A stretch of DNA of 56,921 nucleotides. Source: Candidatus Uhrbacteria bacterium RIFCSPHIGHO2_02_FULL_46_47 (GTDB lineage: Bacteria > Patescibacteriota > Patescibacteriia > GWA2-47-26). Location of the stretch: assembly GCA_001790815.1 (NCBI GenBank), contig MGDU01000023.1, positions 1 to 56,921 of the forward strand, written 5' to 3'. Made by a program: the position numbers and the translations under genes. Under the pieces are notes generated by a model, which made no database searches, was not told the DNA's origin, and saw only the letters and a program-made list of their open reading frames with translations. Below, one piece after another: positions 13,486 to 29,991 of the stretch (positions are counted from its first letter, which is position 1; every line of letters begins with the position of its first letter).

Positions 13486-13527
13486 AAACAAAAAGTTCCA
13501 TACTTGGAACTATGGAACTTTTTGTTT
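13486..13527. promoter_or_regulatory. Palindrome T, downstream copy (17-8-17)
   Basis: AAACAAAAAGTTCCATA-CTTGGAAC-TATGGAACTTTTTGTTT. Contains the stop of the TrpR-like gene; 36-bp core identical to 14221-14256. Confidence 0.85.
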
Positions 13528-14142
13528 GACTTTGCCAAGTTGCATTTCTTTTTCAAGTTGCTGCGGTTTGCGGGGGCTGGTACGTTCCACGCGAAATAGT
13601 GCTTCAAGATAGCGAAACACTTCGCGTTTGCCTTTCCCGGATCCACGCAAAATCTTCAGGGTCTCCAGCATTCGCTTCCGTTGACGGTTATTCGCCGCGC
13701 GCGCAATTTCCTCAAGAATACCTTGCGGCCAGAAATAAAGCGGATAGCGGCGTTTCAGGTGTGCCCAACTTCCCCACATCTCACCAGCATGAGCAGGTGG
13801 CTGCCAAAGTGGCACAGCCATGTCCTCCTTGGCAAGACCACGTGCCATAACCATCCGCAAACCTTCCCCGGCTTGCTGCAACCATAAATTCACGCGCGCG
13901 ATAGTTTGCTGACTCACCTTGAGTTCTTGCCGAATCTGTTCGTACTTTTTGCCTTTGAGTAGTTGCTTTGCGATCTGCAGCCGTTTTGCTACCATGCGCA
14001 GCTCTGGCTCTGATAGTAAATCACCAAGCACTCTGGCCGACTCCTTAAGATTTTTGACCATCACCATGGATTGACAGAGTTCGAGCAACACCCTTTGCTG
14101 TGCTTCTTTTTCAAGTTTTTGCCGGGGAGTAAATTTTGCCAT
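13510..14142 (-). CDS. TrpR-like (YerC/YecD family) DNA-binding protein with C-terminal extension
   Basis: LGDLLSEPELRMVAKRLQIAKQLLKGKKYEQIRQELKVSQQTIARVN helix-turn-helix. Confidence 0.85.
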   Translation of the reverse strand: MAKFTPRQKLEKEAQQRVLLELCQSMVMVKNLKESARVLGDLLSEPELRMVAKRLQIAKQLLKGKKYEQIRQELKVSQQTIARVNLWLQQAGEGLRMVMARGLAKEDMAVPLWQPPAHAGEMWGSWAHLKRRYPLYFWPQGILEEIARAANNRQRKRMLETLKILRGSGKGKREVFRYLEALFRVERTSPRKPQQLEKEMQLGKVKQKVP

Positions 14143-15122: not shown

Positions 15123-15386
15123 TTATTTTTTGAAATGTTTAAGCAACGACTGTAAAATCGGGTGCTGACGGTTGAGCGTGCACCATATCCAAAGCGAGGA
15201 CTGTTTGCGGCATATAAAATCACACTCTACTAATTTCTGAATATGCTTGGAGGTGCTTTTCAAGGATAACCCGATTCGTTTTGCAACGCGGTTTATTGGC
15301 AACGGCTCATGTTTGGCAAGTTCTTGCAAAATGCGCAACCGCCGCTCATTCGCCAACGCTTTGAGACATTTGGTCAATTCTTTCAT
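15123..15386 (-). CDS. ArsR/SmtB family transcriptional regulator
   Basis: LKALANERRLRILQEL...IAKRIGLSLKSTSKHIQKL winged HTH. Confidence 0.9.
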   Translation of the reverse strand: MKELTKCLKALANERRLRILQELAKHEPLPINRVAKRIGLSLKSTSKHIQKLVECDFICRKQSSLWIWCTLNRQHPILQSLLKHFKK

Positions 15387-15496: not shown

Positions 15497-16237
15497 TTAT
15501 GAGTCCCAATAAATCTGTCCAGTTCTATAAGCTTCCATATCGTCCGCCACTGTTGCAAACAGTGGCGTTGGCAAATTATTTAAATCATACCAATCCCATC
15601 CCACACATTTATCCGGCTCTAATACCTGTGGATTGCCGCTTTCCCAATCTACCGAAAGGCTGACATGCACATAGTGCTTTGGCGCATATGCTTTCATATT
15701 TAGCAAGCGTAAAAAGCGTATATTTTTTATTGCAATTCCAGTTTCTTCCTTTACTTCTCGTTTTGCGCAATCTGCGAATGATTCCATATAATCAAGATGT
15801 CCGCCAGGCCAAGCATACTCCCCATCCCCGTGCGAGCTTTTGCGCTTGCCAAGCAAAACTTTACCGTCTTTCCAAATCATCACTCCAATCCCTACCCGTG
15901 GCCGCGTATACGGATGATTGGCTGGCAATGTCGTCACTTCTAGTTCTGTAATAATCCGCTTTTCAAATTTACCACGCTCGTTTGCTTTGTGATCTTTTAT
16001 TTTTGCAATCGCCTGCGAAACCCATTTTCTATAATTGCAAATCGCATCTATTACCTCCAATACATCTGCCATTTCTTCTTGGTTTTCAGCTTCCAAAAAT
16101 TCCGCCACTTCTTCCTGCAATTTTTCCTTTAATTTCTGCTCATACTCCGCATCACTGGCAATATGCGTTACCAACACCTCACCTTTCTCCTTAATAATCT
16201 CCGGTATTTTATCCCGCACGAGTTTAGAATATTTCAT
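15497..16237 (-). CDS. Fusion of all-alpha NTP pyrophosphohydrolase (MazG/HisE-like) and Nudix hydrolase
   Basis: N: KLVRDKIPEII...KLQEEVAEF...EEMADVLEVI. C: PGGHLDYMESFADCAKREVKEETG Nudix box. Start 16237. Confidence 0.85.
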   Translation of the reverse strand: MKYSKLVRDKIPEIIKEKGEVLVTHIASDAEYEQKLKEKLQEEVAEFLEAENQEEMADVLEVIDAICNYRKWVSQAIAKIKDHKANERGKFEKRIITELEVTTLPANHPYTRPRVGIGVMIWKDGKVLLGKRKSSHGDGEYAWPGGHLDYMESFADCAKREVKEETGIAIKNIRFLRLLNMKAYAPKHYVHVSLSVDWESGNPQVLEPDKCVGWDWYDLNNLPTPLFATVADDMEAYRTGQIYWDS

Positions 16238-16279
16238 ATGCCCAGCCACTCTCCTAGTCGCACGACTAGGAGAGTGGCA
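16235..16279. promoter_or_regulatory. Palindrome R, third copy (45-bp direct repeat including the start codon)
   Basis: CATATGCCCAGCCACTCTCCTAGTCGCACGACTAGGAGAGTGGCA. Confidence 0.88.
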
Positions 16280-26159: not shown

Positions 26160-26852
26160 CTATGGCAACGAGCTCTGCCAGTTCCCTTCCGTGGTGGACT
26201 CAACGCCCAGGAACCAGGTGACCTTGGAGAACCCGCGCTTGTACTCGATGAGGTCGAGTTGGCGCTGGTTGCCATCGCCGAAGAGACCGGACACATACTG
26301 CTCGCCATTCACGCAGACTACGCTGTCCAGATTGACCACCTGCTGGAGATCTATCTGGGCCTGCGGGTGTTGAGCACCGATCATGAGCTCGTGATCGATG
26401 CTGACCTCTCTGAGTCCCATGAGCCACCGCACCTGCATGGCCTGCAGACGTGTTGCTTCATGCCCGATGCAGAAGGCCACGACCGTGTCCGTAAGCACGC
26501 GATACCAGTTGTTGGACTCCCAGTCATCCCTCTTCTCAACATGCATGCGTCGAGAACCGCAGGCATTCGTCGTGTGTGCTGGGTCGACGAAGTCGTACTT
26601 ACCAGCCGCGACCATCTGCTCAATCGTCGTGATCGGCCAGATCCCGACCTTGAACTCACGGTGCTGGATCTTCTCCAGGTCGATCGTCGATGCCCAGGGC
26701 CAGCTGTGTGAGGGCGACTCAGTCTTCCACGGGTCCTCATGTCGAAGAAACCTCTTCAGAGTAATAAGCCAGTCCTCTCCCTTCTCTCCTGACAGTTTGT
26801 CGTTCAGATCACGGAGCGGTCCACGCCTATCGCAGAGCGCTACTTTGGCCAT
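26160..26852 (-). CDS. GC-rich hypothetical protein of a CPR-expanded family
   Basis: LSGEKGEDWLITLKRFLRHEDPW...QMVAAGKYD...GAQHP...FLGV. AGGAGGAGG RBS 5 nt before ATG 26852. Confidence 0.8.
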   Translation of the reverse strand: MAKVALCDRRGPLRDLNDKLSGEKGEDWLITLKRFLRHEDPWKTESPSHSWPWASTIDLEKIQHREFKVGIWPITTIEQMVAAGKYDFVDPAHTTNACGSRRMHVEKRDDWESNNWYRVLTDTVVAFCIGHEATRLQAMQVRWLMGLREVSIDHELMIGAQHPQAQIDLQQVVNLDSVVCVNGEQYVSGLFGDGNQRQLDLIEYKRGFSKVTWFLGVESTTEGNWQSSLP

Positions 26853-26929
26853 GTTGGCCTCCTCCTGTGGCAACCTTAGAGCCAGCACTATGCCGAGTCC
26901 ACTGGTCTGCCAGTTTAGGAACTGTGTTA

Positions 26930-26972
26930 ATGCTATCATATTTTTGCCAAAATGTCAAGAGTGCGCTAGAAT
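26930..26972. promoter_or_regulatory. Overlapping divergent promoters
   Basis: Minus: TTGACA (26958-26953)-N17-TAGCAT. Plus: TTGCCA (26944-26949)-N17-TAGAAT for folD. Confidence 0.6.
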
Positions 26973-26984
26973 AGCGGCATTCCT

Positions 26985-27887
26985 ATGCAAATCATAGACG
27001 GCCGTAAACTTGCCGCACGAATTCGCGCAGAAGTAAAAGAGGAGATTGCGCGCCTCGGATCGACTCCGGGGTTAGCTGTTATTTTGGTTGGCAAAGATCC
27101 GGCTTCGCATCTTTATGTTGCGCTTAAAGAAAAAGCATGCACTGAAGCTGGCATCAAATTTGAAAAATATGTGTTTTCCGGGACAGAACCAGAATCCGAA
27201 ATCATTGAAACAATCCGAAAGCTTAATGGCCGCGATGATATTCACGGGATTTTAGTTCAAGTTCCTCTGCCTGCAATCTACCATGAAGACGTTATTCTAA
27301 GCACGCTTGATCCCAGCAAAGACGTGGACGGATTTCATCAAGTCAATTTACGAGCTATTCTTGAGGGGAAACCGCGAATTATCCCCTGTGTTGCTCTTGC
27401 TATCGTAGCGCTGGTAGATGAGGCTATAAAACAAAAAGGGGACGTTTCCCTTTTTGCCCACAAAAAAGGAGACGCCCCCTTTTTGGCCGTCCTAATTGCC
27501 AATCGCATGGAGTTTGCCGCGCCGCTTGAATACCTGCTGGAGAAGCGCGGTGCACTTGTTCAAATTATCTTGCGCGCTAAAGAAGTAACCACGGATATTT
27601 CCGCACAAATTAAATCCGCTGATATTTTGATTGTTGCGCGCGGCCATGCCAATTTTGTGAGCGGCGATATGATTAAAGATGGCGCGATTGTAATTGATGT
27701 AGGAACAAACACACTACCTGACGGCAAAGTTGTCGGCGATGTGGATCAGGGCTTAGCCCTGTCCAAAAAAGGGCTAAGCCCTATGGGCGATAAACCCGGC
27801 TATATTACTCCAGTCCCCGGCGGCGTAGGCCCCATGACTGTAGCTATGCTTTTAAAAAATACTTTAGAATTAGCAAAAAATGCGTAA
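26985..27887 (+). CDS. folD: Bifunctional methylenetetrahydrofolate dehydrogenase/cyclohydrolase FolD with two repeat inserts
   Basis: MQIIDGR, GILVQVPLP, KDVDG, VIDVG, TPVPGGVGPMTVAML. Inserts KGDVSLFAHKKGDAPF (27433-27484) and QGLALSKKGLSP (27747-27782). Confidence 0.95.
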   Translation: MQIIDGRKLAARIRAEVKEEIARLGSTPGLAVILVGKDPASHLYVALKEKACTEAGIKFEKYVFSGTEPESEIIETIRKLNGRDDIHGILVQVPLPAIYHEDVILSTLDPSKDVDGFHQVNLRAILEGKPRIIPCVALAIVALVDEAIKQKGDVSLFAHKKGDAPFLAVLIANRMEFAAPLEYLLEKRGALVQIILRAKEVTTDISAQIKSADILIVARGHANFVSGDMIKDGAIVIDVGTNTLPDGKVVGDVDQGLALSKKGLSPMGDKPGYITPVPGGVGPMTVAMLLKNTLELAKNA

Positions 27888-27895
27888 CACCACCG

Positions 27896-27939
27896 GCAAC
27901 TTCCTGCAATTTCATATTGCCATGGCAGTATGAAATTGC
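27896..27939. promoter_or_regulatory. Palindrome P, downstream copy
   Basis: GCAACTTC, then GCAATTTCATA-T-TGCCATGGCA-G-TATGAAATTGC (27906-27939). Confidence 0.8.
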
Positions 27940-28496
27940 TATAGATCAAAATAATGCCGCATAACGCGCTCATACTGGCCTAGCGATTGGGCAAGAAGAA
28001 GCGACACATGGCCGTCAATTTCGTAGAATTTGCAAATGCGCTCTAGTTCTTTATCGCATGGATACGGACACACAAACACGCTTTTTTGAATCGGCCGGAA
28101 TCCGAGCGCTTTAAGATGCTGACGAAGAAATTCGCGTGATACTTTTTTGACTGTCGGCACATCAAATGCCGCTATGCGCCACACACCATCCCATCGTGCC
28201 GGTTTTTCTAATTGCATGTTCCAAAGCTCATCTCGTTCAAGCGCCGCCTTGCCCTTTGGCGCGAGCTTTGCAATAATTCTGCCTTCATGATCTTCCTTGA
28301 GTTCAATGAGTTTAAGCCGATGAAGACTTTTGAGCCGTGTGCGCACATACCAAATTTTATACTTTGCAAAACGCGCAAGCATTTTCGGAGCGCCCGGCCC
28401 GACAAATCCGGCAAGTGTAATAACTATTGCGCTCTCCGCAAGTGTTTCAAGAATTAATTTAGTAAGCTCTCTTTTATATCGCTTGCGCCTTATCAT
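27939..28496 (-). CDS. PaaX-like winged-helix regulator with Cas2-like ferredoxin-fold C-terminus (CPR family)
   Basis: WDGVWRIAAFDVP...REFLRQHLKALGFRPIQKSVFVCPYPC. Confidence 0.8.
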   Translation of the reverse strand: MIRRKRYKRELTKLILETLAESAIVITLAGFVGPGAPKMLARFAKYKIWYVRTRLKSLHRLKLIELKEDHEGRIIAKLAPKGKAALERDELWNMQLEKPARWDGVWRIAAFDVPTVKKVSREFLRQHLKALGFRPIQKSVFVCPYPCDKELERICKFYEIDGHVSLLLAQSLGQYERVMRHYFDL

Positions 28497-28527
28497 ATAA
28501 TGTCTTCAAACTACAGATACTCATACC

Positions 28528-28551
28528 GCAACTTCGCATTGCCATGGCAAT
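28528..28551. promoter_or_regulatory. Palindrome P, upstream copy
   Basis: GCAACTTC-GC-ATTGCCATGGCAAT (perfect 14-bp palindrome at 28538-28551). Confidence 0.75.
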
Positions 28552-28567
28552 TTGAATTTGGTAAACA

Positions 28568-28873
28568 CTATTGTGTGAATTCGCTTATCCAGTTCTCTAC
28601 TCCTTTAGATACACGCGTCACGGTCCATTGCTCAATAATTGGCAGCTTATAGCTGTGGAGTTTGTGAATTTGTCGTGCCGCGCGATCGGCAAGTGGGTTT
28701 TTTGTTTTACACATAACCATCCACTCCCCTGCCCGCTCAATTTTATTTCCCCATAAGTACATTGAGCGCACTGGCCACATATTTACGCAAACAATTAACT
28801 TCTCATGCAAAAGCATGCGCGTAATTTTTTCTGCTTCTTTGCGTGATCCGCATGTCGTGGTTATCAATATCAT
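28568..28873 (-). CDS. cutA: CutA divalent-cation tolerance protein
   Basis: LLHEKLIVCVN...SMYLW...HSYKLPII...W. Confidence 0.88.
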   Translation of the reverse strand: MILITTTCGSRKEAEKITRMLLHEKLIVCVNMWPVRSMYLWGNKIERAGEWMVMCKTKNPLADRAARQIHKLHSYKLPIIEQWTVTRVSKGVENWISEFTQ

Positions 28874-29991
28874 AAGATATTAAGTAATTTTTGAATAACT
28901 CCAATGGCGAGCAAAACCATGATAATCGCGCCCAGCGCGGTTTTTAATTTCTTGCGCGGCGCGTGGCGTCTATACGCGTATGCGAGCGACACCAAAACAA
29001 TCATCAGCGCGTCAAATCCACCGAAAACACTGCCGACTATATCCAGCACACGCACAAAATTCTGCGCCCCTCCAAAATACAAAATCAAAGGAACCCACAC
29101 TGCGAATAGCCACGCCGGAAAAAGTTTTAAGCGAAAATCATACTGGAAAAGTTCTTTCAAATACATAGCAATTACCAGATATGAAGTAATCACCGCAAGA
29201 AATCCAAAAAGCGCACCCAACCAAATAATAAACGGCGGCAAAGCGCCGCGCAATCCCACAAATGCTTCTTGGCTTGTTGCAGACCCGGAAATTCCCACAA
29301 CCACAAGCATAAACAGCAAGGTTATCAGCACAGAAATAAGAGTGCCGGCAATTATCGCGGCGCGAAGTGCGCGTTTTTTTCCGTGAACTATGTCCCACAT
29401 CTCCGGAATAGCCGGCGATCCGCCCAGCGCAAACAATATAACTCCGTATGGCAAAAAAATCTTCGCAATATCGCCGCCGATAAAATTAGACGGGTCAACA
29501 TTTGGTACGCCGGCAAAAAAAATAACGCCAATAACCGCGATAAGCACCCAAGTAAGATAGAATTCTATTTTTCCAAAAATTCTCAAGCCGAAAAACGTGA
29601 CAATCGCTACAAACGCGAAAAGCCATAGAGAATAGCCCATTACGCTTCCTCCGTCATATCCATTTAACAAAATCCTTAGAAATGTTCCGCCCACAATCAG
29701 GTAAGCAAGCTGGGCACCCCAAAAAGCGATAGTTTGTGAAATTGTTACAATGCTCTTGGCCGGCCTGCCTAGATAACGCTGCGCATACCCTGCCAGCCGA
29801 TGCTTTCCCGTAGTTCCGGCAACAAGCTCTCCAAAAAGCAAATTAATGAAAAGCGAAACTAATCCTAAAAGCACAATCCAGAATAATCCGACCAAAAATC
29901 CGGCCTGCGCTGAAACATAAGGCACGGCAAATATTCCCACCCCCACAATCATGCCAATCATGGCCGCAGTGGCTTGAAAAAATGCTTTCAT
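28870..29991 (-). CDS. Aromatic amino acid permease family transporter
   Basis: IVGVGIFAVPY, LPYGVILFALGG, ITSY; about 10-11 TM segments. Confidence 0.85.
   Translation of the reverse strand: MKAFFQATAAMIGMIVGVGIFAVPYVSAQAGFLVGLFWIVLLGLVSLFINLLFGELVAGTTGKHRLAGYAQRYLGRPAKSIVTISQTIAFWGAQLAYLIVGGTFLRILLNGYDGGSVMGYSLWLFAFVAIVTFFGLRIFGKIEFYLTWVLIAVIGVIFFAGVPNVDPSNFIGGDIAKIFLPYGVILFALGGSPAIPEMWDIVHGKKRALRAAIIAGTLISVLITLLFMLVVVGISGSATSQEAFVGLRGALPPFIIWLGALFGFLAVITSYLVIAMYLKELFQYDFRLKLFPAWLFAVWVPLILYFGGAQNFVRVLDIVGSVFGGFDALMIVLVSLAYAYRRHAPRKKLKTALGAIIMVLLAIGVIQKLLNIL

Follow-up and report, generated by a model that had tools for sequence, protein, structure and literature searches.

PaaX, among the described systems closest to the one reported here, is an autoregulated repressor that has a winged helix-turn-helix (wHTH) at the N-terminus, a dimerisation motif, and at the C-terminus a domain for binding the inducer phenylacetyl-CoA, and its operator is an inverted repeat of about 39 bp, TGATTC-N27-GAATCA (PMC9493321). 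The subject of this work is a short gene located in a 56,921-nucleotide stretch of DNA (contig MGDU01000023.1, hereafter the window) from Candidatus Uhrbacteria bacterium RIFCSPHIGHO2_02_FULL_46_47, which lives in groundwater and is ultra-small. The gene occupies positions 27939-28496 of the minus strand, as given by the open reading frame (ORF) list and a match to Pfam PaaX_M, and encodes a protein of 185 amino acids that we call mini-PaaX and read, from its sequence, as a PaaX-type repressor reduced to the winged helix and the Cas2-like domain, the sensor domain being gone. The gene is placed between two palindromes of its own, an arrangement that is a trait of the family to which it belongs, and the palindrome is most likely the docking site of the mini-PaaX protein itself.

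With PaaX, as known from E. coli W (8A39) and Jannaschia (3L09), mini-PaaX shares an N-terminal winged helix followed by a Cas2-like central domain, and the span of the PaaX operator is similar to that of the 32-48-bp palindromes of mini-PaaX genes. However, PaaX has about 305-316 amino acids including a PaaX_C domain, whereas mini-PaaX lacks the sensor domain, has cutA and folD as neighbours instead of any link to paa catabolic genes, and is a multi-copy protein, with ten copies per 1-Mb genome, a site of its own on both sides, and invariant FDxP/QxS residues. Regarding Cas2, which acts as a dimer on duplex DNA beside partly palindromic repeats, the type II proteins (5ZYF, 6JHZ, 5XVN) have a ferredoxin-like fold and a signature in common with the C-terminal domain of mini-PaaX, but the latter is fused to a winged helix, scores under the cut-offs, is found with neither Cas1 nor an array, and has repeats that bracket a gene instead of spacers. 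Small repressors of the ArsR/SmtB and TrpR types follow the same logic, namely that a dimer sits at its own gene on an operator with dyad symmetry; to our knowledge, these classical autoregulated repressors have the operator at the promoter only, and their textbook description includes no second, conserved copy placed at the stop codon or across it, such as mini-PaaX has, also between convergent genes. REP/RAYT systems likewise combine families of intergenic palindromes with a protein family that possibly recognises them, but mini-PaaX has no HUH/Y1 transposase, and its palindromes are loop-less, paralog-specific pairs around their own gene and not elements dispersed in hundreds. The literature that we searched contains no description of the mini-PaaX family, nor of regulator genes with an operator on both sides; a repressor with operators is a known theme, while the truncated form and the two-sided layout are unusual.

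The first-pass annotation of this DNA, made from the letters alone, had described a PaaX/Cas2-like protein joining a wHTH to a ferredoxin-like domain, and both profile and structure searches bear it out. Pfam PaaX_M, the central Cas2-like domain of PaaX, matches residues 100-174 with an E-value of 1.8e-20 (coding positions 27975-28199, minus strand), with no PaaX_C match, the protein ending at residue 185. The scores for Pfam CRISPR_Cas2 (19.7 against a cut-off of 23.8) and NCBIfam Cas2 TIGR01573 (19.4 against 24.5) are below threshold, as is that for the PaaX equivalog TIGR02277 (20.9 bits against 264.55). The AlphaFold model, for which the paralog alignment served as input, has helices and a wing formed by a beta-hairpin, and after these a beta-alpha-beta-beta-alpha-beta fold; the mean pLDDT is 78, with 86-94 for the C-terminal domain and 54-80 for the N-terminal half. 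According to the secondary structure of this model, the winged-helix half, putatively DNA-binding, comprises residues 1-95 or so (28212-28496, minus strand), with a putative recognition helix at about residues 38-60 and the wing at about 64-78. The best Foldseek match is E. coli PaaX 8A39 (E 2.2e-5, 141 columns), Cas2 chains take ranks 2 and 4-13, and winged helices of the MarR/PadR type also match. A profile of the paralogs weakly matches the wHTH region of PaaX and wHTH chains of the AspA/FapR type; over the C-terminal domain it matches type II Cas2 chains better than PaaX, aligning FD(V/I)P..R..R...GF..Q.SV(W/F) with the Cas2 pattern FD(L/M)P...RK.L...GF.M.Q.SVY.

No Cas1 was found in the genome (the control search gives matches in 7 of 14 genomes), a genome scan found no regularly spaced repeats and so no CRISPR array, and PaaA/PaaC, the sole paa family searched for, had no match in the genome, while control genomes did give matches. 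Together with the missing PaaX_C and the scores below both cut-offs, these results lead us to consider the protein as neither a PaaX orthologue nor a CRISPR Cas2. The family as a whole is large, with 2,846 clusters at 50% identity for E <=1e-3 and 1,223 for E <=1e-10, mostly of 180-200 amino acids; a search for close homologues found only four clusters.

Turning to the DNA around the gene, the first-pass annotation had reported matching palindromes on both flanks, and this claim is confirmed: ATTGCCATGGCA occurs at 27916 and 28538, in both cases within a longer dyad. The upstream palindrome, the first putative operator, is a 32-bp imperfect dyad at 28529-28560, CAACTTCGCATTGCCATGGCAATTTGAATTTG, to which no strand is assigned; its centre falls between 28544 and 28545 in the core ATTGCCATGGCAAT, and 13 of its 16 arm pairs match. 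It is contained in the 71-bp spacer between the stop codon of cutA and the ATG of the mini-PaaX gene, begins 12 bp past the former, and has its centre 48 bp ahead of the latter. The downstream palindrome, a putative second operator or 3' boundary and equally without strand, is the 34-bp near-perfect dyad at 27906-27939 that had already been noted as abutting the stop, GCAATTTCATATTGCCATGGCAGTATGAAATTGC, centred between 27922 and 27923, in which 16 of the 17 arm pairs match. Its start is 19 bp past the stop codon of folD, and its final base is also the last base of the mini-PaaX stop codon (an overlap of one base). The two palindromes are about 80% identical in an ungapped alignment and have the core ATTGCCATGGCA(A)T in common; in the window, exact ATTGCCATGGCA is found only at the two positions given above, and with up to one mismatch there are four matches against 0.78 expected, all of them at the two palindromes.

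The earlier suggestion that GCAACTTC, found at 27896 and 28528, is a box of its own was rejected, as it is the outer arm of the upstream palindrome and by itself occurs at chance frequency, with four matches against 2.5 expected, which is not significant. At the downstream site, the motif is present as an additional tandem copy (27896-27903, plus strand), set 10 bp, or one turn of the helix, further out than the corresponding arm GCAATTTC (27906-27913). This extra copy is not conserved in a related genus discussed below (G004), so its significance is uncertain, and a 10-bp phased array of GCAAT/ATTGC pentamers in the downstream site was dropped for the same lack of conservation.

The extended palindrome is private to the gene. 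In the source genome (1.02 Mb, 27 contigs, 46.7% GC), TTGCCATGGCAA with up to one mismatch has nine further sites, all within long ORFs as crudely called and all without palindromic arms, and no further extended copy of the two palindromes is present in the 1.02 Mb, from which the privacy of the pair follows. A regulon search with TTGCCATGGCAA in this genome found no regulon.

Both the gene and its sites are conserved across genera. G004, which represents another genus of the same family, has an orthologue with 74% identity at the same position convergent with folD; the locus reads glyA-folD, then the convergent gene, and then a permease gene, with cutA absent. Its upstream palindrome is a perfect 48-bp dyad, CATCATAGCTAATTCGTATTGCCATGGCAATACGAATTAGCTATGATG, and its downstream palindrome, which reads AATTCAAATTGCCATGGCAATACGAATT in the direction of the gene, overlaps both stop codons. 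When the upstream spacers of the two genera are aligned, the palindrome is the only conserved block. Both palindromes of G004 retain the core ATTGCCATGGCAAT unchanged together with the A(A/C/T)TTC/GAA(A/G/T)T blocks, whereas elsewhere the spacer sequence has diverged. The four copies define a half-site, A(A/C/T)TTC-NN-ATTGCCA up to the dyad axis, which consists of two conserved blocks about one helical turn apart with a free dinucleotide between them. Of the other genomes compared, G001 and G002 are not syntenic at the locus, and G005, from the same family, has a response-regulator gene at the mini-PaaX position. A third copy of the palindrome was observed in G004, a perfect 32-bp CAAATTCGTATTGCCATGGCAATACGAATTTG (L076:1518-1553; contig C5, about 76917-76952), which sits in an uninterrupted ORF of 507 amino acids that has no mini-PaaX gene beside it and no homologue in the source genome.

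That each gene of the family has its own pair of palindromes was established first within the genome, which contains ten paralogs with 21-64% identity and no near-identical copies. Nine of them can be tested, the tenth being cut by a contig end. The first-pass annotation had suggested that the flanks of all paralogs be compared, and this comparison found that each of the nine has its own repeat pair, one upstream and one downstream and each with a central palindrome; thus, flanking palindromes are lacking in none of the testable paralogs. The cores differ between paralogs: CACGATCGTG in four of them, and otherwise GCGATCGC, CTCGATCGCG, CGTACG, (A/G)CGGCCGC and TGCCATGGCA. For a quantitative measure, we took the 250-bp flanks of 956 crude ORF-genes and scored, for each gene, the best direct repeat that its two flanks have in common without gaps; the median score is 8, and the 95th percentile is at 13. 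The mini-PaaX gene at 27939-28496 scores 18.5, and eight paralogs score 16.5-40.5 as direct repeats (the lowest being C17p with 16.5 and C23p with 18.5); the ninth has an inverted pair.

The same holds outside this genome. The family is carried by 33 of the 121 sampled genomes of the class, with up to 11 copies, and usable flanks were available for 29 homologous loci: 25 from other genomes of the class, two from a search for relatives, and two from Saccharibacteria. A separate search for related loci with the single protein yielded two distant Saccharibacteria loci only. Compared with a control in which the upstream flank of one locus is paired with the downstream flank of another, 21 of the 29 exceed the 99th percentile, with a median of 25 against 9. 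The downstream copy is often at or over the stop codon, and in about ten loci its centre is 12-36 nt past the stop. Moreover, protein and site covary: over all loci their similarities are weakly but significantly correlated (Mantel r 0.12, p about 0.02), the mean site identity being 61% for protein pairs with at least 45% identity and 38% for those below 30%, and homologues at 63-65% identity have a different dyad, CCGAC(A/T)T...GCGATCGC.

In many loci, direct repeats of 30-48 bp coincide precisely with the ends of the gene, and the downstream one often overlaps the stop, as could also be expected if the gene and its two repeats were a mobile cassette and the repeats duplicated target or recombination sites. 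The variable gene content at the position (the response-regulator gene of G005, the absence of cutA from G004) and the solo perfect copy in the 507-amino-acid ORF of G004 agree with this idea. We nonetheless regard it as very improbable, because the gene is at the same position in two genera, the paralogs are deeply diverged, and none of the genes directly beside the ten copies was seen to encode a transposase or integrase. In addition, in G005, which is without the gene, the stretch from folD to cutA contains no solo palindrome, a comparison that is uninformative as an empty-site test at that divergence, and the contigs of four metagenome runs, an assembly level at which rare variants are dropped, show no skip-joints, deletions, or empty-site variants. 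Overall, there is no evidence of current mobility of the palindrome-gene unit.

The palindromes themselves have a recognisable construction. Among the 54 strong ones, 47 are loop-less, and every centre follows the pattern C-N4-G in which N4 is itself a palindrome: CGATCG in 19, CGGCCG in 10, CCATGG in 6, CTATAG in 6, and CCTAGG, CAATTG and CAGCTG in 2 each. A self-complementary, loop-less centre fits a symmetric dimer on duplex DNA, while a hairpin loop would have no need of it. An intrinsic terminator was tried as an explanation and rejected, since no T-tract follows either palindrome, the terminator scan calls neither, and the upstream copy folds as RNA no better than its shuffles (z 0.14). 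The downstream copy gives z -2.1 on the gene's strand and z -4.2 (-20.3 kcal/mol) on the strand of folD, where the single mismatch becomes a G-U pair in the sense RNA. No credible Rfam family was found in 25500-29500.

These folding values bear on the proposal that the palindromes are protein-independent hairpins of RNA or DNA, serving as unconventional bidirectional terminators or as 3' stem-loops that stabilise the transcripts of cutA, folD and the gene itself, with an incidental association with mini-PaaX. Such a role would suit the location of both sites just past stop codons (12 bp after cutA, 19 bp after folD, and at the gene's own stop), the good folding of the downstream site on the folD strand, and the mirrored compensatory changes reported below, which are those expected of a stem. 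It is quite improbable in our opinion, given that the upstream copy, for which neither T-tract, terminator call nor folding speaks, keeps its core across genera; that conservation peaks at the centre, where a loop would be, and the central 4 bp are always palindromic; that each paralog has a sequence of its own, common to both flanks and covarying with the protein; and that the association is specific to genes for DNA-binding proteins.

This specificity was seen because the other high scorers in the flank test are mostly small DNA-binding regulators as well, including six ArsR/MarR-like and two Trp-repressor-like genes, each enclosed by its own palindrome. Two of these types are represented in the window: a Trp-repressor-like gene (13510-14142, minus strand) is enclosed by two copies of CAAAAAGTTCCATACTTGGAACTATGGAACTTTTTGT, and an ArsR/MarR-like gene (15123-15386, minus strand) is enclosed by two copies of a palindrome of the ...CTCCTAGTCGCACGACTAGGAG... 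type, a type shared by the two copies that enclose a Nudix gene (15497-16249, minus strand). That three unrelated DNA-binding folds have the same layout argues that the bracketing sequence is the binding site of the protein it encloses; and, as the ArsR- and TrpR-type regulators are bracketed without having a nuclease-like domain, the layout does not depend on the Cas2-like domain.

On these grounds we favour, with moderate confidence, a dimeric repressor that binds both flanking operators, combining autoregulation with a roadblock or loop at the 3' end. Binding and repression, like the position of the promoter and the role of the downstream site, we infer from the sequence patterns described above. 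The dimer would be held together via the Cas2-like domain, as in PaaX, and the two winged helices of one dimer, or those of two dimers, would recognise the bipartite A(A/C/T)TTC-NN-ATTGCCA half-sites to the left and right of the dyad axis. Protein bound upstream would then limit transcription into the gene, whether coming from or past cutA, and so provide negative autoregulation. The downstream site would be a second operator that overlaps the stop codon and faces the convergent folD; it may work as a roadblock or insulator that ends read-through and the transcription arriving from the convergent folD, or it may be the partner in a repression loop spanning about 620 bp.

Several observations weigh against this repressor model. 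No sigma-70-like promoter was found on the gene's strand at the upstream site, either by a consensus scan or by manual placement of -35/-10 elements, which was unconvincing, and with no promoter placed, an overlap of operator and promoter is unsupported; moreover, the sequencing runs that hold the locus sequence are DNA runs only. The reason for the second site is unexplained as well. The next called gene is convergent for the mini-PaaX gene at 27939-28496 and for the paralogs C10a and C22b, and C10b (a doubtful ORF) and C17p (where a tRNA comes first) also point to a convergent next gene; at least three downstream sites thus lie between convergent genes and are not promoters of the next gene. 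A regulator of this kind, given a paralog without sites beyond its own flanks, would control little besides itself and perhaps its neighbours. The manner in which the palindromes evolve is also not what independent recognition of half-sites would give: differences between upstream and downstream copies fall at mirrored positions on both sides in 25 cases against 9.9 expected (P <2e-4), and they are compensatory in 14 cases against 1.5 expected, or 8 against about 1 over the inner 12-14 positions (P <2e-4). Such mirrored compensatory changes are what selection for self-complementarity, or arm-to-arm conversion, would predict, and some dyads are perfect over 36-48 bp, beyond the need of a simple half-site. 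Finally, the invariant polar residues of the Cas2-like domain, which is much better conserved than the DNA-binding half, hint that this domain may do more than dimerise.

As for these residues, W102, D103, W106, R107, F111, D112, P114, R121, Q137, S139, P144 and C147 are near-invariant in the C-terminal domain and all present in the protein studied here. Over 145 family representatives, which are only about 31-65% identical to it, they are conserved at 95-100% (F111 95%, D112 100%, P114 95%, R121 99%, Q137 97%, S139 100%), while the N-terminal DNA-binding half varies strongly. The invariant Asp of the family aligns with the Asp of the FD(L/M)P motif of Cas2, which is a metal-binding residue.

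An alternative that would account for these features is that palindrome, gene, and palindrome form an independent unit whose Cas2-like domain is chemically active: with the dimer brought by its winged helices to the palindrome, or to the cruciform form of it, the domain would nick or cut the C-N4-G dyad or assist recombination there, and this activity would serve the maintenance, addiction or movement of the element and not ordinary gene regulation. This is in our view unlikely. The near-invariance of Cas2-type residues beside a variable DNA-binding half, together with a C-terminal profile closer to type II Cas2 than to PaaX, is what such an activity would lead one to expect, and so are palindromes that are loop-less, often perfect over 36-48 bp, and changing their arms in mirrored pairs, as well as the privacy of a paralog's sites to its gene. 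Individual loci add to this. In L042, on the metagenome-assembled Saccharibacteria contig CAYUHA010000011.1, both copies have the same arms but swapped centres, CGATCG versus CCATGG, a mirrored change that reads TTGCGATCGCAA upstream and TTGCCATGGCAA downstream; in L065 (G076:C7), whose asymmetric centre reads GCGACCGC, the copies stand in inverted orientation and one is the exact reverse complement of the other; and L067 has a swap of two neighbouring positions on each arm. Against a catalytic element, the Asp of Cas2 is conserved although Cas2 catalysis is dispensable for adaptation, and ArsR- and TrpR-type regulators are bracketed likewise with no nuclease-like domain. Nor does the history of the genes suit it: the paralogs are old, with none of them near-identical to another, the locus is syntenic across genera, the four metagenome assemblies contain no deletion or empty-site joints, and neither Cas1 nor another integrase partner was found.

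The stricter form of this proposal, in which mini-PaaX units are autonomous and the Cas2-fold domain, with specificity for sequence or structure, cuts, nicks or resolves a loop-less, cruciform-prone palindrome at the C-N4-G dyad, is rather improbable. If it were true, these units would be free-living relatives of the CRISPR adaptation protein with a "repeat-insert-repeat" unit of their own, and a Cas2-fold domain acting on DNA would explain both the mirrored evolution of the arms and the retention of a site on either side; more generally, should the Cas2-like domain turn out to be an active enzyme, the family would matter for the question of how the CRISPR adaptation module arose.

The family is of interest under the repressor model too. 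The genomes of Patescibacteria (candidate phyla), of about 1 Mb, are thought to be very poor in regulators, and here one such genome has ten copies of a single uncharacterised family of putative DNA-binding proteins, which in these bacteria have about 180-210 amino acids. As the cognate site of each member can be read computationally, the family offers a dictionary from protein to DNA site, with dozens of pairs, for following the evolution of winged-helix specificity. It also presents a candidate for a conserved 3' operator that may act as a roadblock, loop anchor or insulator in gene-dense genomes.

Regarding the surroundings of the locus, the gene upstream on the same strand is cutA (Pfam CutA1; 28568-28873, minus strand), and the convergent gene downstream is folD (26985-27887). 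Within folD, an inverted repeat, AGGGCTTAGCCCT...AGGGCTAAGCCCT at 27751-27783, is in frame and encodes roughly QGLALSKKGLSPMG; the orthologue of G004 has a shorter and different stretch at the QGLALSKKGLSPMG position, and the repeat resembles a palindromic insertion that keeps the frame of a housekeeping gene. Further on, the 1.1-kb gap between glyA (ending at 25866) and folD holds a GC-rich island at 26050-26950, with 56-59% GC against about 45% around it, which contains an ORF of 259 amino acids (26160-26939, minus strand) without a Pfam match and several overlapping open frames. Since the glyA-folD gap of G004 is only 53 bp, the island is an insertion relative to that genus.

Long palindromes are abundant in the source genome in general, with 121 having arms of at least 12 against 29 in a Markov shuffle. 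The palindromes of some paralogs also adjoin other genes, the C22a type being present in ten copies and the C10a/C20p type in six, and these copies have a regulon-like appearance. Several other families of long, perfect palindromes lack an evident partner protein, for example GGAAGCTCAGCTTCC-N-GGAAGCTGAGCTTCC (perfect up to 50 bp), CATTCTGCGATTCCGCGGAATCGCAGAATG, ATTTCACGATTGCGCAATCGTGAAAT and CGAATATACGAATTCGTATATTCG, and over the whole genome GCGCGC and GCGGCCGC are over-represented 8.9 and 9.2 times relative to expectation. On contig C3 of the same genome (770-3787), there are four copies of a 44-bp palindrome, CAAACGGCTCAATAATTTGCGATCGCAAATAGTTGAGCCGTTTG, of the type that flanks the paralog C22a; three of them are spaced at 898 bp, and together they bracket two identical genes of 158 amino acids and one of 280 amino acids, the region being a tandemly duplicated, palindrome-delimited array.

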